Sequence record: NC_103192.1
Reading direction: 5' to 3' (one strand)
DNA length: 64,000 nucleotides
DNA from: a phage
Shown: positions 13,476-64,000 of the stretch, piece by piece
Layout: every line of letters begins with the position of its first letter
Position numbering within the stretch: position 1 is the stretch's first letter
Notes under the pieces: model-generated
Told to the model about the DNA's origin: nothing
The model's database searches: none
Seen by the model: the letters and a program-made list of their open reading frames with translations, nothing else
Position numbers and translations under genes: made by a program

Positions 13476-14079
13476 CTGCTCTTCTCCTACCATAAACGGC
13501 CCCACCCGGCAAGTGGAATAATTGACTAGCCAGCAATTGCCTGCACTGTACAAACATACAGGTAAAATAGTTATTGCATAACCTTTCATTGTGTGGTAGC
13601 AGTGCCATTTTTACACGTTTTTCCTTCCAAAATTGCACGTAATGCCGCTATTGCATAAATTTTAACCTGATGCATATCTTCAATATCTTGTCAACAACTA
13701 AAAATCTTTATAAGTCATACACTTACACCACCACAAAAGCGTGTTCTACGTGAAAAATCGGGTGTAACTATAGCCGCCAGATCTCAGAATTTACGTACGC
13801 TCACCAGTCTATAGCCTGCTAAGTATTTATTCCAACCATAGAATAACGGAATAGTCAATACCTGCATAAAATAATTATTCGTGTAAACTGCATAACATAA
13901 ATCAGCCAGGGTGTCAACATTTTTCGTAAACATCTCGAAATTATCACGATGAGTTATCATAAACAGAGAAATCTTTAGTCGTCTAATGTTTACTGTACAT
14001 TACTATACTGGCTGGAATCATTAGATGACTAAGAGAAAGATAAGAAATAGTTAACAATGTAATTGTTTTACCTGTAACA

Positions 14080-14310
14080 ATAAGGCAACTATGCAAACGA
14101 ATGGCATGGCGCGACGGAGTCGCGACATAATATAAAAGCAGTAACCATCACCCCCGTGATAGTTTGTCTGCAAACTATTAATCAGATCATAGTTGCCTTG
14201 TAGTTAGTTAATCATGACACAATAAGCAAGGCAACTATAGATCTGCTAATAGTTGCCCTGCTTTTATATTATGTCATAGAAACACCCGAAGGGGTGACCG
14301 AAGGTCACCT
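14080..14310. repeat. Nested inverted repeats (18-bp gacataatataaaagcag / ctgcttttatattatgtc; four copies of CAAGGCAACT in alternating orientation)
   Basis: Read directly: 14124-14141 versus 14258-14275; motif copies at about 14082, 14189, 14229, 14249. Confidence 0.7.
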
Positions 14311-14329
14311 GGCCTAGCCAGTGAAAGAT

Positions 14330-14530
14330 TATTAACTTGTTAATTGTTAACTTGCTAATTGTTTTCATGCAAACGAATGTCATGGCTTATCATATCTGCG
14401 TGAACAGTGAAACATGGAAATGATAAATATGTGAACAGTTATCCATGTAAACTATTAGACATGCAAACAATCAGGTGTGCAAAAGTGACATAGTATGTCA
14501 CCAGTATGTCATAGTATGTCAGACAAGTTT
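14330..14530. repeat. Direct repeats and overlapping palindromes (ATGCAAACRAAT x3, GTGAACAG x3, TGACATAGTATGTCA array)
   Basis: Read directly in a non-coding tract. Confidence 0.65.
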
Positions 14531-16006
14531 TTCTCCTCTTTGTCAAGTGCTGCATGGAAAATTTACAAACTGGTATGGTAGCATTTTTGCGGCCCTGTTT
14601 ACATTCAGGAGTGTATGTATAATCCTTGTTGTGTGGGCGTTTAGACGTCTGGACGGTCAGAAGTCCGCAGGTTAATATCTAATCTATTGGTTGCTAACTA
14701 TATCCCACACAAATAGTAAGAAATATAATTGTTATATGCGTAAACAGTAACTCATGTTATCAATCCATGTATGGATCGCCAGTGGTGCGCATAATGGGTA
14801 TTATGTTAAATTGCCCGTAATGATAACCATTCCCACAATGATAGGTATTCTCATTCACCCCCACAAGATAGGTTGCAAATGTTGTGCCACTGTGTGAACG
14901 GCCTCACCTATTAATTTGCCCCACTGCCTCGATATTTGAGAATTGTTATAAGAATGAGAAGTATTCCCATTCCGTCCGCCTGGCAGCACTCCAGTCGCTA
15001 ACGCTCTCGGGCTGAGAGCTATGCTCGATGCTACCGGCTCCTGACAGGGAGGCACTCCTGTAGGACAGGTCAAAATCGGGGCATAACTGGACCCCCCTTC
15101 AGATATTTCTGGCTGACTCTTCAGGTCTGTGTGGGAAAAGCCAACCTCTCCGGCAGAGGGGAGGGGGTCAATTAAAAAATTTACGTGGTGTATGAAGCGC
15201 TCTTCAGGCAAGGTGTGTATTATGGGAGGAATCACTCTTCAGGTGATGATATTTGTGGGTGTGATATTTGCTGGAAAGCCAGATATGACGGGACTCCCGG
15301 CGGGGCAGGGGTAGTACAGACAGGGAAAATGTGGAGAATGTGGTGGGTAAATTGATCAGGCAGGTAGAGTATGAAATATGTTACAGGTATGTTAAATATG
15401 GAGGGTGAATATCTGTAAGATTTGTGTGTAAAATCAAAGACTTAAGTGGTGTTGTGGTATTTTCTATAAATAATTCAAGTTTAATAGGTAATATTTGTCT
15501 CTATCCACTTTGTGTGGTAACCAGATTCAGATGAAATTGGTTTACAAGTGTATACATAATATACAAATTAAAGATACAAGAAACCCCCCTCCCCCTTCGG
15601 CTACCATTCACCTTTTCCTCTGACTGGTACTTAAACACTTATTCAGACTCTTCAGGTTATCACCCATATATCATATGGCAGTGACTGGTGTCCTCCGGCC
15701 CCTCTTTCGTCACCCGTCCGCTTCGCCATGCTAATGCCATAGCCAAAGGTTCGGTTGTTCACCCTGTTCACTCAGGTGTATCTCCATACCCCTTCAAACC
15801 GAAGAGAACAGAAAACCCGAATTACTCGGTAAAAGAAAAGAGAAGAACTTAATTTTATCAGGATAGGCAAGAATGTCAAGGCATGACTGCTCACTAAACA
15901 AGCAAACAGTCATGTGTGGGAGGTAAGTGATTGTGGTGGTAGGAAATTTAGTTGAAAGATGTGTTATAGGTGCTTCCAGCACTTTAGCCGGGCAGCTAAT
16001 TGTGTG

Positions 16007-55315: not shown

Positions 55316-55666
55316 TCAGTAGATGTTTTGTTTAATCTCTATTCCAAACTTTTTAAACGAGTCAGCTGCAAGCATGAATTTACGAGCAGCTGATGGGTTA
55401 GAAGTATGCACGAAAATCTTCACGTTGTCAACTACAGGAGGCTTACCAAATACAAATTTTTCCTCTAGGAGGCAGAAGCAATCGTATCCTTCAAGAATTT
55501 CTCCCAAGTCGCTGTCAAAATGCCACTCAGAAACGCGCCTGTAGAGCTTTCCCTTATCGTTAATAAAATCCATAAACTCAGAAGAATTCTTTAGCCACAG
55601 AGCGTCTGGGAGTCCATAATCTGACGGATCTCTAAAATCATCAAGCCACACAATCCACTTCTTCAT
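55316..55666 (-). CDS. Hypothetical protein
   Basis: 4-nt overlap with upstream ligase gene. Confidence 0.4.
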   Translation of the reverse strand: MKKWIVWLDDFRDPSDYGLPDALWLKNSSEFMDFINDKGKLYRRVSEWHFDSDLGEILEGYDCFCLLEEKFVFGKPPVVDNVKIFVHTSNPSAARKFMLAADSFKKFGIEIKQNIY

Positions 55667-56598
55667 TGCATATAGTCCTCGTTGTGGAAATAGTAGTCCA
55701 GTATCTCACGACGCTCCTGCTCTAATAAGCAATTCCACACATCTTCTGTATAGTTGCTACGAATAAATTTTACCATACCGTAAAACTCTTCGTCAACACG
55801 TTTAAAGATATCATCATCCCAAATCTTCCAAGCTTTACCCCTCATTACGGCCTTCCGTGCCAAATAGTATGGAGACTTGATCTTCAGCTGCAGATCATAA
55901 GGGTAGTAAGGCTTACGAATCATATACCCTTCACCTCTTGTTTCTGCAGCTAATTCTTTTGCATAGCTGAACGGAATTTCACGCACAGTGTGAGGACGTT
56001 TTGCACCAAGGTATTTGGCAATCCCATCTAAAGCTGCTTCTGGTAGCATTATTCCAGAATCATTATATCTGCAACCTATCAAATATGCGCCATGATCTTC
56101 CTGAACAATATGCGGATCTGAAGGGTGACAAATTTCAAACATGAATGTCATGTTTTCATGGCCCATAACCTTCTTGATAAGATCTAAATTACCACATTGC
56201 TCCTGGATGGTTTCCTTTGCAAGGTTACAATATGGAGAATCAAGAGACCCGGTTGTTGAAAACAATAGTTCACCTTTATGAGATGATACCACACCAAGGA
56301 ATCCGTTCTTTTTCTCTACCACCGTCACAAGTTTATTGTCAGGCAGGTTGGTGGAATTTTCTCCCAAGTTAAACACTTTTGTGAAGGGCCATGCCACAAC
56401 ATTTCCTTCATTACCGACAACAATGCCTCGGCACTCCAGCAAACGAGGAGACAAATGCCATAAATTGTTGTAGAATACTTTTCTGGCATATTTATAGATC
56501 TTTAACCCAAGATCCGGGTAATATCTGCTGGTTACAAGACCTTTGTCAACTAGGTCGTCTGCATTAAAATACTTCATCATACATTCCTCATTTGTCAT
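55663..56598 (-). CDS. RNA ligase-like nucleotidyltransferase
   Basis: Motif I VVEKKNGFLG, motif IV EGYMIRK, motif V LKIKSPYYL; context with kinase and phosphoesterase. Confidence 0.5.
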   Translation of the reverse strand: MTNEECMMKYFNADDLVDKGLVTSRYYPDLGLKIYKYARKVFYNNLWHLSPRLLECRGIVVGNEGNVVAWPFTKVFNLGENSTNLPDNKLVTVVEKKNGFLGVVSSHKGELLFSTTGSLDSPYCNLAKETIQEQCGNLDLIKKVMGHENMTFMFEICHPSDPHIVQEDHGAYLIGCRYNDSGIMLPEAALDGIAKYLGAKRPHTVREIPFSYAKELAAETRGEGYMIRKPYYPYDLQLKIKSPYYLARKAVMRGKAWKIWDDDIFKRVDEEFYGMVKFIRSNYTEDVWNCLLEQERREILDYYFHNEDYMQ

Positions 56599-56698
56599 TT
56601 TGTCCCTTTATTCTGCCACACAAATAACCCAGTGTCAACACTTGAAATTAACAAAACCGTTAGGTATACTATCATTCAAATTAAAACGGAGGGTTACT
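56599..56698. promoter_or_regulatory. Divergent promoter region between the minus-strand and plus-strand blocks
   Basis: Plus: TTGAAA, 17 nt, TATACT ahead of 56699; minus: TTGACA-containing sequence ahead of 56598. Confidence 0.5.
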
Positions 56699-57109
56699 AT
56701 GTCTAAAATGCTATATATCGTGCGTGGTCTACCAGGGTCTGGCAAATCAACACTGGCAAATGCGCTATCTTTAGAAGGTCTGTACCCACATTTTGAGAAC
56801 GACATGTTCTGGTACGACGATGACGGCAATTACAACTGGGATGCAAGTAAAGTAACACTTGCAGCAAAATGGTGCAAAGATAACGTAGAAGATATGATGC
56901 GTATGGGATACGACCGTATCGTGGTAAGTAATACGTTTACAAAAGAAAAATATGTTCAAGAATATATTGACATGGCGATCAGTCATGGATATAGTTATAC
57001 CGTGATCGTGGTTGAAAACCGCCATGGTAATAAAAGCATTCATGATGTTCCAGACAGGGTTGTGGATCGTATGGAACGCCAGCTTAAAAACTGCATTAAA
57101 CTTAAATGA
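56699..57109 (+). CDS. Polynucleotide kinase-like P-loop kinase
   Basis: Walker A GLPGSGKST at residues 10-18; SD ggaggg; 137 aa. Confidence 0.6.
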   Translation: MSKMLYIVRGLPGSGKSTLANALSLEGLYPHFENDMFWYDDDGNYNWDASKVTLAAKWCKDNVEDMMRMGYDRIVVSNTFTKEKYVQEYIDMAISHGYSYTVIVVENRHGNKSIHDVPDRVVDRMERQLKNCIKLK

Positions 57110-57116
57110 GGGATGT

Positions 57117-57671
57117 ATGAAATACTTTGTAACAAGCGACACACACTTTCTCCACCAGCGGGTAATGGAGTTCGACTCATGTCAAAAACACAGATCTCAG
57201 TATGATCACAATCTTGACAGTATGAATGCGGGAATCATCACCAAGTGGAACTCTGTTGTGTCACCTGCAGACACTGTGTTTCACTTGGGGGATATTGCGT
57301 GCACTAATGATAAGAATATCAACAAATTGCTTCCAGATGTTCTAAATATGTTGAACGGACATATTATTCTTGTTCGTGGTAACCATGACACAAGGACGAC
57401 TGTCAGAATTATGAAAGAGTTCGGTCATGAGGTTGTGGATTATTACGAGCTTCGCCACAACAAGAATTTGATCTGTATGAGCCATTACCAGTTTGCAACG
57501 TGGAACAGAAAGCATCACGGATCAGTCCAACTGTTCGGTCATGCTCACGGAACCACACAACAGTTGTTTGGCAGGCAGTTTGATGTCGGTTGGGATGTGT
57601 GGGGGAGACTCTTACCATTAGAAGAGGCATACCGTGTTGCAATGAGTTTTGCTATTGACAGCGGGGAGTAA
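57117..57671 (+). CDS. Calcineurin-like metallophosphoesterase
   Basis: SDTHF, GDIAC.ND, GNHD motifs in canonical order. Confidence 0.65.
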   Translation: MKYFVTSDTHFLHQRVMEFDSCQKHRSQYDHNLDSMNAGIITKWNSVVSPADTVFHLGDIACTNDKNINKLLPDVLNMLNGHIILVRGNHDTRTTVRIMKEFGHEVVDYYELRHNKNLICMSHYQFATWNRKHHGSVQLFGHAHGTTQQLFGRQFDVGWDVWGRLLPLEEAYRVAMSFAIDSGE

Positions 57672-57718: not shown

Positions 57719-58069
57719 ATGAAAGATGGGGATAAACTGCCATATCTTAAAGTCCCCCTTGGTATACTGTCTATGTCAAAAGTTTTGAATGACACAACTG
57801 GAGAGGTTGTTGTTCTTGACTTGTATGATAAGATCGTATACTGCTACCTGCACAACTGGTATAAGCTTGGAGGAAATTCACGCTTCACACCCAGCACAAG
57901 GAAAATTGCAGCAGATATTGGGATAAAGAAAACAAAAGCAGCAGCGTGCGTTAAAACTTTAGAATGTGCAGGGGTGGTTGAAACATCCACACAAGGGAGA
58001 GGCAAGAGATGCACATTTTCCAAAGTTTTGCCACCAGAAGAAGTTATTCGAATGTCAACAACTGGTTAG
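57719..58069 (+). CDS. Putative HTH DNA-binding protein (candidate initiator/regulator)
   Basis: RKIAADIGIKKTKAAACVKTLECAGVVE helix-turn-helix-like segment; iteron array immediately downstream. Confidence 0.4.
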   Translation: MKDGDKLPYLKVPLGILSMSKVLNDTTGEVVVLDLYDKIVYCYLHNWYKLGGNSRFTPSTRKIAADIGIKKTKAAACVKTLECAGVVETSTQGRGKRCTFSKVLPPEEVIRMSTTG

Positions 58070-58144
58070 ACCAGTAAAAACTTAAACATCTGTACTATAA
58101 GGATTTGTATGTTTTATGTTCGCTCTGGAACAGAGGTTAGTAAC

Positions 58145-58225
58145 TGTCCGTGATACGGACACTACTGTCCGTCACGCGGACACATCTGTCCGTAATACGG
58201 ACACTAACTGTCCGTGATACGGACA
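58145..58225. repeat. Four 17-bp palindromic iterons (TGTCCGTGATACGGACA and variants) at 21-22 bp spacing
   Basis: Copies at 58145, 58166, 58187, 58209. Confidence 0.85.
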
Positions 58226-58229
58226 CATA

Positions 58230-58345
58230 AAGAATATAACTAAAATAACTAAATAATAAAAAATAAAAGATCTAGTACTTATGGTACTAAAGTACATATA
58301 CTTAACTTATGTAGAATATACTAGATCCTAAGTACCATGTTTTAA
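58230..58345. other. AT-rich tract with short palindromes (candidate DNA unwinding element)
   Basis: Over 80 percent A+T immediately after the iterons; agtacttatggtact palindrome. Confidence 0.45.
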
Positions 58346-58374
58346 ATTTATTACTTATTATGGGTAGTGTCGGC

Positions 58375-58725
58375 CCTTCATTGGCACTCGCCTACGAGGG
58401 GCGAGATGCCGGGCCTCCATAGTGCACACAATAACAGAAGTGCATACATGCAGGACTGTTAACATGTGTGGGAGCGAAGCGATAGCGCAGGCCAAAGGCC
58501 GAGCACTAATGTGGACCACCGACGAAAGCTTGCCAGCGCCGGAAGGAGTCGGTTGAGAGCCTCCCGCGCGAGTTTGGTTAAAGTTTATGTGTGGAAACGG
58601 ACAGGAAGGCTCCTAAATCGCCACACAGCTGCGTAAACTATATCAAGTAAGGCAATCGCACCAGTTTGATAGAAAAGCTCGTTACAAAGCGATACAGTGA
58701 GTTTTTCTATAACTTGAAGAGGAGA
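58375..58725 (+). ncRNA. GC-rich structured non-coding segment (candidate structured RNA or long leader)
   Basis: About 350 nt with multiple complementary GC-rich stems (ctcgcc/ggcgag, ggcc aaa ggcc); no credible ORF. Confidence 0.3.
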
Positions 58726-58730
58726 CAGCT

Positions 58731-59309
58731 ATGAGTTCACGCAAAGATGACCGCGAAAAGATTGCAAAACGTTATCAGAATGAAGAACAGATGGAGAAAA
58801 CTTTCAAGTGGAAGCCGGGTTTCCAGCGTAATCATTCTAACGCTCGTGATCGTAAGCATCCGGATAAGTGGCTAACACCGCCAAAGGATGGCATGCAGGT
58901 TGGTGATGAGAAGGAGCTATCGCCCGGAAAAGATGGCAACTACATTCGCACTAAGGACGCTGGTCCAAAGGATGACAGCTATCTTGTAGATAAGGTTCTT
59001 GATGGTATTGATGTAGATGTTGACACTACACGGAACTTTTTTCTTGGGTGGTATCGCACAGGTTTTTTCGACATCAAGGCCATTCGTCGTGTTTGTGATA
59101 TTAAAAAGTCTGCATATGATGACGACTCGTTACATCGCACCCTGAGACAATATTCAGAAAGATATGGTCATCCGGTTATCACTCTTGACGATGTTAACGA
59201 AGTGATGTATCATGCAGAGGTTGTTGCAGGCAGATTTGGTGATGCATATCTTGATATCCTTTCTGCAAACGATGAGGTAATGTTGAATAAGATTTACTAC
59301 GAGCGTTGA
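58731..59309 (+). CDS. Hypothetical protein (192 aa)
   Basis: SD gaggagacag. Confidence 0.5.
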   Translation: MSSRKDDREKIAKRYQNEEQMEKTFKWKPGFQRNHSNARDRKHPDKWLTPPKDGMQVGDEKELSPGKDGNYIRTKDAGPKDDSYLVDKVLDGIDVDVDTTRNFFLGWYRTGFFDIKAIRRVCDIKKSAYDDDSLHRTLRQYSERYGHPVITLDDVNEVMYHAEVVAGRFGDAYLDILSANDEVMLNKIYYER

Positions 59310-59584: not shown

Positions 59585-59827
59585 ATGTTTAAGGTTAAGC
59601 TCGTTTTCCGTTCCATGAATGAGGATTATTTAGAAGATGAAGGTGAATTTCGTGCACTAGATGATGCAATAGATTTTGCCAACGACTTAGCTTGTATGAA
59701 TACTGGTTATGGTTTATGTTGTTGGGATGGTGGTGTTCAGATTGGTGATAGCAAGATCTTCTACTTCTACCCTGAGCCCGATAACAAACAAATTAAGTAT
59801 GTTTTATTTATTTGTGCTTTACAATGA
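59585..59827 (+). CDS. Hypothetical protein
   Basis: Promoter-like TTGACA at about 59505. Confidence 0.45.
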   Translation: MFKVKLVFRSMNEDYLEDEGEFRALDDAIDFANDLACMNTGYGLCCWDGGVQIGDSKIFYFYPEPDNKQIKYVLFICALQ

Positions 59828-59864
59828 GGTTGTTTTCGTGTATCATGATGAATATCCAATTTAA

Positions 59865-60125
59865 AGATGAGTTTGATGGCTTTATCTCCGGATGCTTTGA
59901 AACAGGGTTCGGAGAAGACTGAGTTCCCCTTAGAGGTCTTGATAGTGCACCACACTTAAAATGGTAGGGGCAGCCAGCACATGACGATGTGACCCCAGCC
60001 AACCTGTAATAAGGTCGAGCCTGAGAGCGGTAATGGGTATAGCTGGAAAACCCACTCGTTGGGTCTTGTTGGTCCAGGACGCTGGGCAAGTCGCAGGGAA
60101 TACCACCCTGCGGCGAACTTGACAA
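59865..60125 (+). ncRNA. Structured non-coding segment (candidate small RNA)
   Basis: GC-rich hairpins (gcaggg aatacca ccctgc; cccc...gggg); only low-complexity overlapping ORFs. Confidence 0.25.
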
Positions 60126-60600: not shown

Positions 60601-60675
60601 GCCACCCAGTGCCCTGTTAGCTTAGTGGATAAAGCAGCGGCCTTCTAAGCCGTTGACACTGGTTCGAGTCCAGTA
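60601..60675 (+). tRNA. tRNA-Arg (anticodon TCT)
   Basis: Hand-folded cloverleaf: acceptor GCCCTGT/ACGGGGT, anticodon loop CTTCTAA, T-loop TTCGAGT, CCA encoded. Confidence 0.7.
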
Positions 60676-60815
60676 CGGGGTGCCAAGTTCTTTTTAATGT
60701 AGCTTACTTTAGCAGAGTAAATCTTCGGCAAGTGGCGGTAACCACTTTACCGATACCTCATAGTTAGTGGTGAGAACACTAGCTATTTTAAAAAGAATTT
60801 AAATATTAGTATTTA

Positions 60816-60903
60816 GGTGAGTTAATTCCGTAGGGGTAGCGGGGCAGACTGTAAATCTGTTATCATTGCGATTCGGGTGGTTCGACTCCATCACTCACCA
60901 CCA
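60816..60903 (+). tRNA. tRNA-Tyr (anticodon GTA), long variable arm
   Basis: Acceptor GGTGAGT/ACTCACC, anticodon arm CAGACTGTAAATCTG as in E. coli tRNA-Tyr, T-loop TTCGACT, CCA. Confidence 0.7.
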
Positions 60904-61017
60904 AATTTATATTTTTAAATGCATAAATCATACAGATAATGGCATTGATATTTATCGTCGTTTATACTAGTCACTAACTGCTCGAAAATCAGTGTCATTA
61001 TCAGTATTGTTTATAAA

Positions 61018-61108
61018 AGAGGGTAGGGAGCAATGGTGCTCAAGCGGTCTTGAAAACCGTCCCGTTGAGGATGACTCGATGATGGTTCGATTCCATTATC
61101 CTCTGCCA
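61018..61108 (+). tRNA. tRNA-Ser (anticodon TGA), long variable arm
   Basis: Acceptor AGAGGGT/ATCCTCT, anticodon arm CGGTCTTGAAAACCG, T-loop TTCGATT, CCA. Confidence 0.7.
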
Positions 61109-61206
61109 TATTGTTGACTATGTAATTAAGCGAAAGCCGGAAGCAGAACCGGATTATCAAATGTTACAGTCGTCATCGCCGACTAGCAACATGGTCAACA
61201 TACTGA

Positions 61207-61305
61207 GCTAGGTAAGCCCTTTGGCAAGGGCGAGGATTTTTAATCCTGAAAATAGACGAGGTAGTCGTTGAATACATAGGTGGTTCGATTCCATCACCTA
61301 GCACC
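61207..61305 (+). tRNA. Atypical tRNA-like element (type II shape, irregular anticodon arm)
   Basis: Acceptor GCTAGGT/ACCTAGC, D-arm GCCC/GGGC, T-loop TTCGATT, long variable arm; anticodon region is either a 5-nt loop or a 4-bp stem with TTTTTAA loop; no CCA. Confidence 0.35.
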
Positions 61306-61310
61306 TTTTT

Positions 61311-61386
61311 GCTGATGTAGCACAATTGGTAGTGCAATTGATTTGTAATCAATAGGTTGCAGGTTCAAGTCCTGCCATCAGCACCA
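61311..61386 (+). tRNA. tRNA-Thr (anticodon TGT)
   Basis: Acceptor GCTGATG/CATCAGC, anticodon loop TTTGTAA, T-loop TTCAAGT, CCA. Confidence 0.75.
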
Positions 61387-61387
61387 T

Positions 61388-61462
61388 GGCCCTGTAGCTG
61401 GAAGGTTCAAGCAAGCGACTCATAATCGCCAGACGGTGGTTCAATTCCACCCAGGGCCACCA
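61388..61462 (+). tRNA. tRNA-Met or Ile2 (anticodon CAT)
   Basis: Acceptor GGCCCTG/CAGGGCC, anticodon loop CTCATAA, T-loop TTCAATT, CCA. Confidence 0.75.
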
Positions 61463-61473
61463 AATAATAAATA

Positions 61474-61550
61474 CTCCGCGTAGCTCAGCTTGGTAGAGTG
61501 CCTGATTTGGGATCAGGAGGTCGAGTGTTCGAATCACTCCGTGGAGACCA
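61474..61550 (+). tRNA. tRNA-Pro (anticodon TGG)
   Basis: Acceptor CTCCGCG/CGTGGAG, anticodon loop TTTGGGA, T-loop TTCGAAT, CCA. Confidence 0.75.
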
Positions 61551-62654: not shown

Positions 62655-63079
62655 TGTCTAAGATTTACGGACCGTGTTCTGAAAAGCAGAAGATGATCCT
62701 CGAAAACGATGCAGATATTTTGGTAATCGGCGGTGCCGCAGGGTCTGGCAAGTCGTTCCTCTTGCAGTTGATGCCACTTAAAATTATTGATGACCCCCAC
62801 AGCTCTGTGGTTATGTTCCGAAGAACAACCCCACAGTTGGAAGGTGAGGGTGGGCTATGGCCTAAAGCAGTAGCTATTTATAGCGATCTGCCTGAAAACA
62901 TTAAGCCAAAGTTCAGAGAGAAGGATCATAAGTTCATTTTCCCACGGTTTGATCCGGGCACTGGCAAGTGGGATAGAAGCAAAAAGGGAGCTGTTGTAAA
63001 ATACTGCCACATGGAGTATGTACAAGATAAGCTTAACCATCAAGGGCTTGAGTACACCATGGTTTGCTTTGATGAGGGT
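62654..63079 (+). CDS. terL: Terminase large subunit, exon 1 (ATPase N-terminal part)
   Basis: Walker A GGAAGSGKS, Walker B MVCFDEG; reading frame then hits a stop where the intron begins. Confidence 0.7.
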
Positions 63080-63398
63080 TAATTTGTAGCTCTCGTAAAA
63101 CCTCCCTAATTGCGGGGAAATCTTTATTATTGACACCACCAACCTGTCATGGTAACATGACAGAGGCTTCGAAGAGAGATCGAAGGTATGGTAACAGTGT
63201 GTTAATTTAGATAATCCGCAGCGAAGCATCCGAAAGGATGAACGTTCAACGACTAGTCGAAAGACGTAGAATCAAGCGATTCGAAACGGGAGGATAAGCG
63301 GTTGTTGTCGCTTATAAGATATAGTCTGGTCTGCATGGAGACATGCAGCTGCCTGAAAATGGCGGGGCAAGACTAGCGACCTTGCCCGAACATAAACG
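63080..63398 (+). mobile_element. Group I intron (ORF-less) in terminase large subunit gene
   Basis: GTTCAACGACTAGTC and AAGATATAGTC core elements (P7-like), P9-like hairpin; exon 1 ends on U of ggt; frame resumes TQFEWEQIDYLMSRL. Confidence 0.6.
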
Positions 63399-63716
63399 AC
63401 GCAATTCGAATGGGAGCAGATAGACTACCTAATGTCTCGTCTGCGATCTCAGTCAAAGTATCCATCAAGAATGGTTATCAGCTGTAACCCCGACTCAGAA
63501 CACATGCTTGCCAAACTGATTAGGTGGTGGTTGGACGATGAAGGGTATCCAGATCCGGAGAAATGTGGTAAGAAAAGATATTTTATCCGACGCGACGGTG
63601 AATTTATCTGGGGAGACTCTAAGGAAGAGTTAATAGAGAAATACACCACGGTTAACGGACTAGGTGTGGAGATCAAGCCAAGACCGTTGTCATTCTCGTT
63701 CATAGGCGCAACCATT
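63399..63716 (+). CDS. terL: Terminase large subunit, exon 2
   Basis: Continues the ATPase domain (RMVISCNPD region) in frame after the intron; ends at a stop followed by a second intron. Confidence 0.6.
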
Positions 63717-64000
63717 AAATGATAGTGGCTTCGTGCAGAAATGCACGTCGAATAACTTCGTTAATTGCTGGAAAATCCTTTATGAAAGGACAATCAGCAG
63801 CCAAGCCTGAATATTCAGGAAGGTTCAACGACTATCCTGAGAGGGAGTAGGGCGCAAGCTTATGGCGCTCGAAAAGCGAAGCACCCTGAGATGGGTGGTG
63901 ATATAGTCTACTCTGCATGGTAACATGCAGCGGCACGTAATGGTGCGGAGGGTGGTGTTGCGACCACCCTTGAATATAAGGATTCGATAATCCTGTCTGC
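63717..64000 (+). mobile_element. Second group I intron in terminase gene (3' end beyond window)
   Basis: GTTCAACGACTA and GATATAGTC elements and a P9 hairpin closely resembling intron 1 and the nrdD intron. Confidence 0.55.

Follow-up and report, generated by a model that had tools for sequence, protein, structure and literature searches.

An array of short hairpins beside a candidate iteron origin is common to Vequintavirus phages and small capsid-encoding plasmids of E. coli

Single-strand initiation (ssi) and primosome-assembly sites, of the G4 or the phiX174 type, adjoin plasmid origins: the G-site of R1 lies downstream of oriR, and ColE1 carries n' sites. These signals are about 60 to 150 nt long, consist of a few short hairpins and are read by replication proteins of the host; therefore, unrelated replicons can share them. 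The host primase DnaG uses a CTG start. The lambda origin comprises four O-bound palindromic iterons, an AT-rich region and a flanking palindrome. Structured untranslated transcripts made at origins, such as RNA II and RNA I of ColE1 or RNA_E of T4 oriE, can prime or activate replication. The T4 PeSL cassettes and the REP/BIME elements are mobile hairpin cassettes of non-coding regions. Phages of the genus Vequintavirus are widely used for therapy and typing, and we know of no replication origin or non-coding element that has been characterised in them.

The rV5 genome paper did not locate the origin and marks only a 'non-coding' box on its map; no terminator was predicted in rV5 between P081 and the late genes (PMC3606486 Table S4). 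The DNA analysed here, a 64-kb stretch of NC_103192.1 that we call the window, belongs to an rV5/FV3-like Vequintavirus phage of E. coli. Its GC maximum (0.538, against a window mean of 0.424) is a 314-nt segment that begins at about 58361-58367 and extends to 58680; at this scale, just 0.016% of sliding windows reach such a value. The original prediction, made from the sequence alone, had noticed an abrupt switch to GC-rich sequence at this place, and the switch is real: the 140 nt directly upstream have a GC content of 0.20, and in steps of 200 nt the value rises from 0.315 (58200-58399) to 0.555 (58400-58599). The segment also has, as supposed, no credible ORF. The overlapping frames encode only 31, 44, 56 and 53 amino acids, although some GenBank records annotate hypothetical ORFs of 31-56 residues within it, and substitutions between the window and a relative found in IMG/VR are spread evenly over the three codon phases (22/16/18, compared to 21/11/70 in the downstream gene), which is not the codon periodicity to be expected of a decayed gene.

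The element is present in all 118 Vequintavirus records found (118/118), with 90-98% identity and with position and domain order fixed. Searches of 50,697 phage records by blastn and tblastn gave matches in Vequintavirus only, and pattern scans of viral and genome collections returned the same IMG/VR contig or nothing. No similarity to the element was found at the loci of Seunavirus, Phapecoctavirus, a Klebsiella phage and Henunavirus; its absence from these four sampled loci of other Vequintavirinae and related genera indicates that it is no general requirement for such phages. In the IMG/VR relative, the whole upstream cassette is unalignable: the 116-residue winged-HTH (wHTH) protein is replaced by an unrelated wHTH-like protein of 143 residues, different repeats stand in place of the iterons, and the AT-rich spacer, which is kept within the genus, has been exchanged. 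Conservation restarts at 58367-58369. This, and not 58375, is the conserved 5' edge, while the part common to other replicons ends at about 58665, the phage-specific long hairpin and the Shine-Dalgarno (SD) sequence occupying 58663-58730. The limits first proposed, 58375-58725, thus need a small shift; the strong SD announced before the next gene is there, GAGGAG standing 6 nt 5' of the ATG. A T7-type primase pentamer (GTGTC/GGGTC) lies exactly at the 5' edge of the element, as a single site and not enriched. The features of the locus are collected in Table 1.

Table 1. Features of the hairpin array and its surroundings (positions in the window; array sequences in RNA letters, + strand)
Feature	Position	Strand	Remarks
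116-aa winged-HTH protein	57719-58069	+	Candidate iteron-binding initiator or regulator
Four palindromic iterons TGTCCGTnnnnCGGACA	58141-58226		Spacing 21-22 bp; candidate origin or operator; repeat and inverted-repeat search
AT-rich spacer	58227-58366		GC 0.20; candidate DNA-unwinding region; from composition
5' domain, long hairpin	58367-58421	+	Conservation resumes here in the IMG/VR relative; terminates in GGGCCUCC
5' domain stem GGCCC/GGGCC	58372-58376 / 58411-58415	+
5' domain stem GGCA/UGCC	58383-58386 / 58407-58410	+
5' domain stem CUCGCC/GGCGAG	58387-58392 / 58400-58405	+
Variable hairpin	58425-58470	+	Inner stem UGCA[UACA]UGCA at 58441-58452; dispensable periphery
Linker motif copy 1, AUGUGUGGGAG	58465-58474	+	Direct repeat
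Irregular hairpin around GGCC-AAA-GGCC	58475-58517	+	With GCGAAGC and GC-GAUA-GC, then linker AAUGUGGACC
Core hairpin ACCGAC/GUCGGU	58518-58553	+	Around the 24-nt loop GAAAGCUUGCCAGCGCCGGAAGGA (58524-58547)
CUCCCGCGCG	58561-58570	+	Read directly; conserved in plasmids
Linker motif copy 2, AUGUGUGGAAACG	58587-58599	+	Direct repeat, 85% identical to copy 1
3' domain	58610-58665	+	GCYCCUAAAU, hairpin, RUAAAC, hairpin, CCAG
3' domain small hairpin GCY[4 nt]RGC	58620-58622 / 58627-58629	+	RNAalifold
3' domain small hairpin GC[AAUC]GC	58652-58653 / 58658-58659	+
Phage-specific hairpin	58663-58714	+	About 20 bp, A/U- and G-U-rich, immediately 5' of the SD
SD GAGGAG	58719-58724	+
192-aa gene	58731-59309	+	Start codon 58731-58733

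The cassette upstream of the element, with its repeats, AT-rich stretch and wHTH protein, appears to follow the pattern of a lambda O-like iteron origin. The protein matches Pfam HTH_36 and PHROG 'replication initiation protein' families, including phrog_270, and BLASTP relates it weakly to the wHTH of the Rep encoded by the plasmids described below (28% over 54 aa, E 4e-5). We infer that the wHTH gene and the iterons are a putative origin rather than a repressor-operator set. No canonical DnaA box was found in the region and no sigma70-like promoter was called in the AT-rich spacer. Downstream, the 192-residue product has no Pfam match and belongs to PHROG 12226, of unknown function; its AlphaFold model (mean pLDDT 54.7) is too poor for a fold search. 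A 50%-identical homologue of this gene has an upstream gap of 59 nt in which the element is absent.

Homologues of the element found by BLAST lie in about 12 E. coli plasmids or contigs of 13.3-13.9 kb, within a gene-free region of 2.2 kb; these replicons code for capsid and tape measure proteins and an O-like Rep. Horizontal acquisition, one of the origins first considered for the segment, is supported in so far as parts of the element are shared horizontally with plasmids. The Rep, whose gene lies downstream of the array, matches HTH_36 and PHROG replication-initiator families, and iterons precede the array. In all replicons examined, iterons, AT-rich stretch and array follow one another in one orientation, and this order is constant despite iterons (and, in the phages, an initiator-type wHTH gene) of at least three unrelated specificities. 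The array itself is modular. Its length is about 300 nt in the phage and reaches about 650 nt in the plasmids, between which hairpin modules are present, absent or swapped: most plasmids are without the phage 5' domain and those of type B are without the core loop. In NZ_CP020521.1, by contrast, an inserted block consists of three palindromic repeats, an AT-rich stretch and a 5' domain of the phage type (1003-1055 in our extract of this plasmid), which carries two compensatory G-C to U-A changes; the same plasmid has a different insert of about 100 nt in place of the variable hairpin. Strong promoters separate the plasmid array from the next genes. On the - strand, about 380 nt exactly over the array lie between a promoter-like site (9/12) and a strong terminator (GCCUAAAGAG...CUCUUUAGGC, then UUUCAUUUGU). 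The literature yielded nothing relevant on this plasmid family or on ncRNAs, transcriptomes or satellites of Vequintavirus.

It is well supported that the element, from 58367 to 58665, is non-coding and consists of short hairpins in a row, with conserved single-stranded linkers between them (AUGUGUGG, CCUAAAU), that its base-pairing is maintained by selection, and that it belongs to an uncatalogued modular family common to Vequintavirus phages and 13-14 kb capsid-encoding E. coli plasmids. The supposition that the segment is highly structured is upheld by comparative data more than by thermodynamics, which gives moderate support only (MFE z-scores of -2.0 to -2.3 on the + strand and -2.5 to -4.7 on the - strand). 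Between phage and plasmids, 7 stem pairs are changed on both sides, compared to 1.3+-0.9 in shuffled alignments (0/500) and 0-1 in slid controls, and 98.4% of cells are paired. Among the plasmid modules, 7 of 12 pairs are changed on both sides and 98.6% of cells are paired. The 24-nt loop of the core hairpin is identical in the window, the IMG/VR relative and the type-A plasmids and varies among phages at two positions only, the main variation being GGAA/GUAA, whereas 3 of the 6 pairs of its stem are altered on both sides between phage and plasmids. This hairpin is part of the 63 nt (58508-58570) that are 86% identical to a plasmid-like contig, L025. The 3' domain likewise aligns with that of the plasmids (...CCCCUAAAUGGCCUUCUGGCUGCAUUAAC...GUGCAAUUGCAU...), with compensatory changes in 2 of the 3 pairs of its first hairpin.

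Other parts are less constant or less certain. The variable hairpin is the block most diverged from the IMG/VR relative, and in several phages an 18-nt deletion between GUGCAyACA repeats removes its 5' arms and rebuilds the inner hairpin. The irregular hairpin, an RNAalifold prediction with mixed support, resembles a module of type-B plasmids that was read directly (AGC-GUA-GUGC-GAUA-GCAC-GGA-GCU). The UGUGUGG motif is enriched in the element (2 observed, 0.08 expected). CUCCCGCGCG is complementary to the first linker copy, with three G-U pairs, and has an alternative partner at 58589-58595; a long-range helix between 58465-58474 and 58561-58570 is possible, the pairing being invariant within the phages, with one-sided G-C to G-U changes in the IMG/VR relative and in sequence L032. 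Three further pairings were rejected: GCCUCC (58414-58419) with the SD, proposed by RNAalifold, is mismatched in the window itself and in the IMG/VR relative and is not maintained; the MFE hairpin CACACA/UGUGUG loses its 5' arm by deletion in several phages, in which UGUGUG is invariant; and GUGUGG/CCACAC (58590-58595 / 58624-58629) is complementary in the window sequence only.

Over all stems, changes on both sides outnumber one-sided changes by 21 to 3, and pairing is of the Watson-Crick kind whichever strand is read. For the phage core, alifold gives the two strands the same energy, the advantage of the + strand arising from the phage-specific hairpin before the SD. This last hairpin is nearly invariant in all phages, and its G-U pairs, with A-U to G-U and G-U to G-C changes, fit the + strand only. 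Watson-Crick stems on both strands, together with equal core energies, fit hairpins formed at the DNA level or a need for pairing on both strands; such covariation is compatible with DNA, and RNA is compatible with it also. The clues to the strand (MFE z-scores, alifold energies, wobble pairs and loop types) contradict each other.

The family does not correspond to any known RNA that was tried. With Rfam 15, the region 58200-58800 gave no match at the gathering threshold and only chance-level matches at E<=10, the best being rli43, whose 24 bits fall short of its gathering score of 100 and come mostly from the AT-rich flank; the plasmid homologues gave no match either. Of what the original prediction made of the segment, a non-coding, structured element is supported, and this element is conserved; a riboswitch, a ribozyme and an intron relic are not supported. 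The group I model (RF00028) finds two introns in the window, at 63070-63348 and 63706-63930, and nothing at the element. A riboswitch or attenuator leader of gene 58731 is not supported either: no terminator is called, the anti-SD pairing is the mismatched one described above, the 50%-identical homologue of the gene does without the element, and in the plasmids promoters intervene. For RNase P RNA, GAUGCCGGGCCUCCAUAG and ACGGACAGGAAGGCUCCUAAAUCG recall CR-I and CR-V by eye, yet the two cannot pair in the register of P4, CCAUAG and CAGGAAGG differ freely from phage to phage, and no RNase P model gives a score at E<=10. For tRNA- or tmRNA-like elements, ARAGORN and the tRNA model of Rfam find genes at 60611-61550 only. 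ToxI-like RNAs of type III toxin-antitoxin systems are tandem, near-identical repeats of 34-48 nt upstream of an endoribonuclease toxin gene; the element has one pair of 13-nt direct repeats only, and the downstream protein has neither a Pfam match nor a PHROG family of known function.

We tentatively propose, with a probability of roughly 40%, that the array is a cis-acting accessory of the iteron origin, active when it is single-stranded or transcribed. Opening of the AT-rich region, passage of the early rightward transcript, or both would leave it single-stranded and free to fold; in the folded hairpins, together with the conserved loops and linkers, replication proteins would find structured signals for entry or priming. 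The array would lie on the lagging-strand template of a fork leaving the origin rightwards, a position that suggests a likeness to a single-strand initiation or primosome-assembly signal, or to an origin transcript that forms a primer or an R-loop. Its readers would most simply be host proteins: tblastx of the plasmid-like contig against the window found no protein in common, which makes a common host factor the simplest reader of loop and linkers. Because a homologue of gene 58731 exists without the element and plasmid promoters separate it from the next genes, the array does not seem tied to its neighbours. A function together with the origin is more probable than one as a metabolite-sensing leader of that gene. 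Several observations do not sit well with the role of an origin accessory. At 300-650 nt, the array far exceeds known priming signals in length, its linkers in the phage have ATG where DnaG uses CTG, the region is without a canonical DnaA box, and the four sampled loci without the element also count against it. Moreover, the loop variation that stays within GNRA, a possible UUCG loop and the G-U-rich candidate helix look RNA-like and specific to the + strand, and conservation in the phages continues unbroken into the + strand mRNA hairpin and the SD.

These last features are what would be expected if the element acted as a structured RNA of the + strand, a possibility that we hold to be nearly as likely as the accessory of the origin. 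Such an RNA might be a stable ncRNA cut from the early rightward transcript, acting as a sponge or scaffold through its UGUGUGG linkers and loop, or a long structured 5' leader controlling the translation or stability of gene 58731. The array does lie inside the rightward early transcription unit, in which no terminator was found, peripheral hairpins are gained and lost in modules as in large ncRNAs, and the enrichment of UGUGUGG also speaks for an RNA. On the other hand, no promoter is called just upstream in any context, and one plasmid (L020) has a strong + strand terminator at the end of the upstream operon and no + strand promoter before the array. The covarying stems almost never pass through G-U, the leader version has to face the broken GCCUCC-SD pairing and the homologue of the gene that lacks the element, and a role purely at the RNA level leaves the constant position beside the iterons unexplained. 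Pairing on both strands, the position next to the origin and the rep operon, and the bracketing of the plasmid array by - strand signals would also suit a sense/antisense pair of RNAs with mirror-image stem-loops that controls replication or expression in the manner of plasmid copy-number systems. We consider this improbable: no - strand promoter is called in the phage, the 5' domain of the phage type has no U-tract following it on the - strand, and classical kissing complexes need loops larger than the 3-4 nt found here.

Equally improbable is a mosaic of unspecialised, recombination-prone hairpin cassettes, like terminators, REP/BIME elements or T4 PeSL cassettes, exchanged between co-resident phages and plasmids and having only generic roles in ending transcripts, in insulation or as recombination hot spots. 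Modules are indeed gained, lost or swapped between plasmids, and phage and plasmids have common hairpins elsewhere too: three plasmids match, at about 90% identity, a terminator-like module of three hairpins on the - strand (14328-14278), and NZ_CP043822.1 matches a 37-nt hairpin at about 15033-14997 with 100% identity, which suggests recent co-residence of phage and plasmid. However, the array has no internal U-tract terminators, its position and domain order are fixed in 118 phages, and phage and plasmids have kept the 24-nt loop and several linkers in common while the stems covary. Co-residence might also mean that the 13-kb plasmids are satellites of rV5-like phages and that the element is a replication or packaging signal for both. 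The purely non-coding similarity between contig and window, a plasmid record that is a head-to-tail trimer, and plasmid proteins whose PHROG matches include capsid and tail parts and no terminase or portal would all fit. This is less probable again, since tblastn with the plasmid capsid protein found nothing among 50,697 phage records, the 5' domain of the phage is missing from most plasmids and the core loop from those of type B, and a double-stranded pac site does not explain covariation in stems. A decayed protein-coding gene or a chance GC-rich patch is very improbable. The short annotated ORFs and two phage indels that are multiples of 3 might speak for this reading, but the even distribution of substitutions, the +1, -1 and +3 indels of the IMG/VR relative and the compensatory stem changes speak against it, and the exact 5' edge of conservation survives a swap of the neighbouring cassette.

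The locus offers a candidate origin module for Vequintavirus, made of a wHTH protein, iterons, an AT-rich region and an element supported by covariation, whose stems and loops are defined well enough to be mutated. A further result is a link between these phages and a seemingly undescribed family of small plasmids of E. coli with capsid and tail genes. That nothing but non-coding hairpin modules is common to these plasmids and the 64-kb window points to an unrecognised helper-satellite relationship or to a host factor common to both. A bolder version, which we regard as rather doubtful, is that the array is a new large modular signal, a structured RNA or a landing pad of single-stranded DNA, common to virulent rV5-like phages and cryptic capsid-encoding 13-kb mini-replicons, through which an unrecognised satellite joins the replication or packaging of its helper, or by which both recruit one host factor. 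Should the element prove to be an RNA, it would found a new structured-RNA family for Rfam.

Among the systems to which the array can be compared, the PeSL and REP/BIME cassettes resemble it as short stem-loop modules shuffled among related, co-resident genomes; they differ in that its single-stranded loops and linkers are conserved too and its domain order is fixed throughout the phages. GOLLD and ROOL RNAs are likewise modular, hundreds of nucleotides long and found in phages near tRNA genes, with functions that are unknown, but the array has no Rfam match and is a chain of small hairpins with almost no G-U covariation. In P4 (CI/seqA-seqC) and P1 (C4), the replication or early operon of a phage or plasmid-like satellite is preceded by a structured leader, and a short CCCGCGCG complementary to repeated copies of UGUGUGGG adds to the likeness; the array, by contrast, has no match to C4 in Rfam. 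The origin transcripts of ColE1 and T4 are structured, untranslated RNAs adjoining an origin that may run into protein-coding genes, and the G-rich tracts of the array (UGUGUGGG) could favour RNA-DNA hybrids. The candidate origin, however, is based on iterons and is not ColE1-like. The - strand promoter-like site and terminator that an antisense RNA of the ColE1 kind would use are present in the plasmids and not in the phage. The lambda origin resembles the locus in having four palindromic repeats spaced by two helical turns, an AT-rich stretch and a wHTH with similarity to O-like and HTH_36 proteins. Nevertheless, the initiator-like protein has 116 residues only, the repeats lie outside its gene, and the structured part beside the repeats is far larger and its conservation does not depend on the iterons. 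The ssi signals differ from the array in size and in the DnaG start that the phage linkers lack, and priming here is putative. They would share with it a non-coding, strand-specific set of short hairpins beside the unwound part of an origin, on the strand exposed by the departing fork, and reading by replication proteins of the host. The order of iterons, AT-rich stretch and array in phages and plasmids fits the placement of such signals next to what is here a putative origin.

The hairpin array at 58367-58665 is a real, conserved element that is supported by covariation and belongs to an uncatalogued family; the mechanism put forward for it here is a proposal. The abrupt switch to GC-rich sequence described in the original prediction is genuine and extreme, the 314 nt from 58361 having the highest GC content of the 64 kb (0.538 versus a mean of 0.424). 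Overlapping ORFs reach only 31-56 aa, in agreement with the claim that no credible ORF is present, and the strong SD of the next gene is indeed there (GAGGAG, 6 nt ahead of the ATG at 58731). That the segment is highly structured holds on comparative data; thermodynamically the signal is modest and not strand-specific (MFE z-score: + strand, about -2; - strand, -2.5 to -4.7), so that the case for structure rests on comparison with relatives.

The window phage is a Vequintavirus (rV5/FV3-like) coliphage, and the 118 phage records that match a 501-nt query around the array at 90-98% identity in a BLAST search of phage records are all rV5-like. The element is carried by 18 'Campylobacter phage' records (MG0656xx) and by CP057073.1, a 137.6-kb E. 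coli 'plasmid', all of which look like rV5-type coliphage genomes. In FV3, it falls within a 660-bp gap without annotated CDS, where some other records annotate small hypothetical ORFs.

The sequences were read directly, and a hand-made structure (see the table) was tested on ten phage variants aligned with the plasmid NZ_CP020521.1. In it, 98.4% of cells are paired, and comparative covariation is evident: 7 pairs are changed on both sides, against 1.3 ± 0.9 in shuffles (0/500) and 0-1 in slid controls. The 24-nt core loop, GAAAGCUUGCCAGCGCCGGAAGGA, does not differ between the window, a diverged IMG/VR relative and those plasmids that we call type A; among phages only two of its positions vary, the main change being GGAA<->GUAA. 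The phage element shows an enrichment of UGUGUGG (2 copies versus 0.08 expected). The ACGGACA at 58597-58603, within the element, is identical to a half-site of the iterons upstream (scored as an inverted repeat); it is also kept in the relative with different iterons and may be a coincidence.

Features of the array and of the surrounding window
Feature	Position	Remarks
Gene-poor region, read on the - strand	13640-15927	about 2.3 kb, almost ORF-free, between divergent gene blocks; YUGUGGG linkers and short hairpins; repeats CCUGAAGAG x3, GACAUACU x3, CUGUUCAC x2, CAUUCGUUUGCAU x2
Three-hairpin, terminator-like module	14328-14278	about 90% identical to three 13-kb plasmids
40-nt stretch	about 14779-14818	matches, at 90% identity, an intergenic site without annotation in some 35 E. 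coli chromosomes (UTI89-type strains and others)
GC-rich stretch	14851-15011	only other stretch of the window nearly as GC-rich as the array
37-nt hairpin	about 15033-14997	100% identical to NZ_CP043822.1
RNA repair-type cluster	55663-57671	upstream of the repeats; RNA ligase 1 (-), then polynucleotide-kinase-like ATPase and metallophosphoesterase (+)
Winged-HTH (wHTH) protein, 116 aa	57719-58069	annotated 'replication initiation protein' or 'transcriptional regulator'
Four palindromic 21-22-bp repeats (iterons)	58141-58226	TGTCCGTnnnnCGGACA; upstream of the array
AT-rich stretch, 140 nt		GC 0.20; between repeats and array
5' domain	58367-58421	one long hairpin; two G-C to U-A double changes in the plasmid version
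Variable hairpin	58425-58470	in several phages an 18-nt slippage deletion shortens it and rebuilds the inner stem
First linker	58464-74	AUGUGUGGGAG; complementary (three G-U pairs) to CUCCCGCGCG, 58561-70, a possible long-range partner
Irregular hairpin		around GGCC-AAA-GGCC
Core hairpin	58518-23 / 58548-53	ACCGAC/GUCGGU; 3/6 pairs changed on both sides in plasmids
Second linker copy	58587-99	AUGUGUGGAAACG
3' domain	58610-58665	CCUAAAU and two small hairpins; aligns with plasmids; compensatory changes in one hairpin
192-aa protein	58731-59309	other side of the array; function unassigned
Second unannotated stretch	59850-60118	GC fairly high (up to 0.535); flanked by a promoter-like site (59818-59846) and the promoter preceding gene 60176; 88-92% conserved in the IMG/VR relative; MFE z-score -1.5; no Rfam match at E<=1
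tRNA cluster	60611-61550	downstream of the array; ARAGORN and Rfam differ on two genes
tRNA	60816-60900	called by Rfam alone
tRNA-Ser	61018-61108	called by ARAGORN alone
tRNA, 99 nt	61207-61305	four-base anticodon loop reading (atcc); tRNA-Lys in a relative's annotation
Two group I introns	63070-63348; 63706-63930	downstream of the array; Rfam RF00028, 84 and 93 bits; both seem to lie within the large terminase gene (start near 62.5 kb by comparison with the FV3 annotation)

The diverged relative is represented by one contig from IMG/VR and one from Logan, and its downstream protein is 82% identical. Its alignment with the window covers the ligase-to-phosphoesterase block (82.5% identity), is lost completely over the wHTH gene, the iterons and the AT-rich stretch, and restarts exactly at 58369. 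The segment 57682-58368, which holds these three, is swapped as one cassette in the relative, its counterpart carrying an unrelated 143-aa wHTH-like gene and different repeats in a genome otherwise 82-92% identical; an insertion of ~835 bp follows the 192-aa gene there. Identity to the relative is 83.6% in the element and 82.4% in the downstream gene, the differences by codon position being 22/16/18 and 21/11/70, respectively. Conservation of the element is patchy, with some blocks 20/20 identical and variable blocks at 58425-58470 and 58600-58645. Phase-even differences and patchy conservation are what is expected of a structured non-coding element and not of a decayed protein-coding gene; we rank a decayed gene or chance last, as very improbable.

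The readings as a riboswitch-like leader and as a ribozyme or intron relic fared no better. The 192-aa protein has a single distant homologue, 50% identical, which lies in a tightly packed operon with a gap of only 59 nt upstream; this argues that the element is not an obligate, riboswitch-like leader of that gene. As for a ribozyme or intron relic, tests for RNase P and group I introns gave no membership, nor did those for tRNA/tmRNA, riboswitch leaders and ToxI-like RNAs, and the Rfam 15 scan returned no match at gathering thresholds and chance-level matches only at E<=10.

A sensitive blastn of complete E. coli genomes matched the element to small circular plasmids and to no chromosome. Together with PLSDB and E. 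coli genome searches and a pattern scan of metagenomes, this gave ten plasmids of 13.2-13.7 kb and two metagenome contigs, forming a family of circular replicons of 13.2-13.9 kb (L019-L025, L027 and L031-L033 in our numbering, comprising NZ_CP020521.1, NZ_CP043822.1, CP148565.1, NZ_CP035869.1, CP134895.1, NZ_CP178698.1, NZ_JBUCKS010000006.1, NZ_CP074841.1, NZ_AP045055.1 and metagenome contigs); one plasmid is recorded as a 39.6-kb head-to-tail trimer. These replicons have the look of a satellite or mini phage-plasmid family that is as yet undescribed; they encode an O-like wHTH Rep and major head, tape measure, tail-completion and tail-fibre/baseplate-like proteins. No terminase or portal was recognised in them, their capsid protein has no match among 50,697 phage records, and the plasmid-like metagenome contig L025 shares no protein with the window by tblastx. 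We found nothing in the literature on the element or on the plasmid family. Every replicon has a gene-free region of ~2.2 kb in which iterons, a short A/T-rich stretch and a G/C-rich one, the element homologue, strong sigma70 promoters, two tiny ORFs and rep follow one another. The plasmid array is longer and clearly modular: each unit combines a linker YUGUGUGGG with up to three short hairpins (at least one), and the plasmids differ in which units they have, lack or exchange. In a three-hairpin module, 7/12 pairs are changed on both sides; four plasmids (type B) have another hairpin, GUCCGGAU...AUCCGGAC, in place of the core hairpin, and a 5' domain of the phage type occurs in just one plasmid.

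The order iterons, AT-rich stretch, array is kept in the same orientation with at least three unrelated iteron types (that of the window, that of the IMG/VR relative and the plasmid direct repeats), and a fourth context is provided by a block inserted in NZ_CP020521.1, where the phage-type 5' domain is accompanied by three palindromic repeats and an AT-rich stretch. Both the wHTH protein of the phage and the Rep of the plasmids match Pfam HTH_36 and PHROG replication-initiator families, and the two are weakly similar. Since the flanking genes vary from one context to the next, what stays constant beside the array is an origin-like cassette and not a gene. It is mainly for this reason that we favour, with a probability of roughly 0.4, a cis-acting accessory of the iteron origin, which would act when unwound or transcribed, in the manner of a priming or entry signal or of an origin transcript. 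At the 5' edge of conservation, the window and the plasmid have GTGTC where the IMG/VR relative has GGGTC; both are recognition pentamers of T7-type primases, but this is a post-hoc lead from a single site that is not enriched. The rV5 genome encodes a gp4-like primase-helicase, and its authors could not define the origin, mentioning only an unexplained 'non-coding' box (PMC3606486).

A structured + strand RNA, whether stable and non-coding or a leader, ranks second, with a probability not far below that of the origin accessory. The rV5 paper predicts a promoter, P081, upstream and no terminator ahead of the late genes (PMC3606486 Table S4), and our own prediction agrees in finding no terminator, which places the array inside an early rightward unit; moreover, its GNRA-type loops vary inside GNRA, and the long 3' hairpin and the SD are compatible with the + strand only. 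Against this, no promoter was called directly upstream of the array in any context, phage or plasmid, and in one plasmid (L020) a strong + strand terminator closes the upstream operon with no + strand promoter after it, while the array is enclosed, on the - strand, by a promoter-like site and a strong terminator. In addition, the covarying stems change almost only from Watson-Crick to Watson-Crick (21 cells changed on both sides versus 3 on one), and the phage core folds equally well on either strand (-76.13 versus -76.17 kcal/mol). Watson-Crick pairing that holds on either strand suits DNA-level hairpins or a sense/antisense pair more than it does a typical single-strand RNA. A sense/antisense control pair ranks third, as improbable.

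The window's second gene-poor region, 13640-15927, which probably corresponds to the 'non-coding' box on the rV5 map, shares short hairpin modules with the plasmids. This would suit generic shuffled hairpin cassettes, which we place fourth and consider about as doubtful as the sense/antisense pair; the same modules, 37 identical nt included, speak for a helper-satellite recognition module, fifth in rank and less probable still. Among known systems, the element comes closest in position and build to single-strand initiation signals beside plasmid origins and to origin transcripts, and in size and host range to the large phage RNAs of unassigned function.
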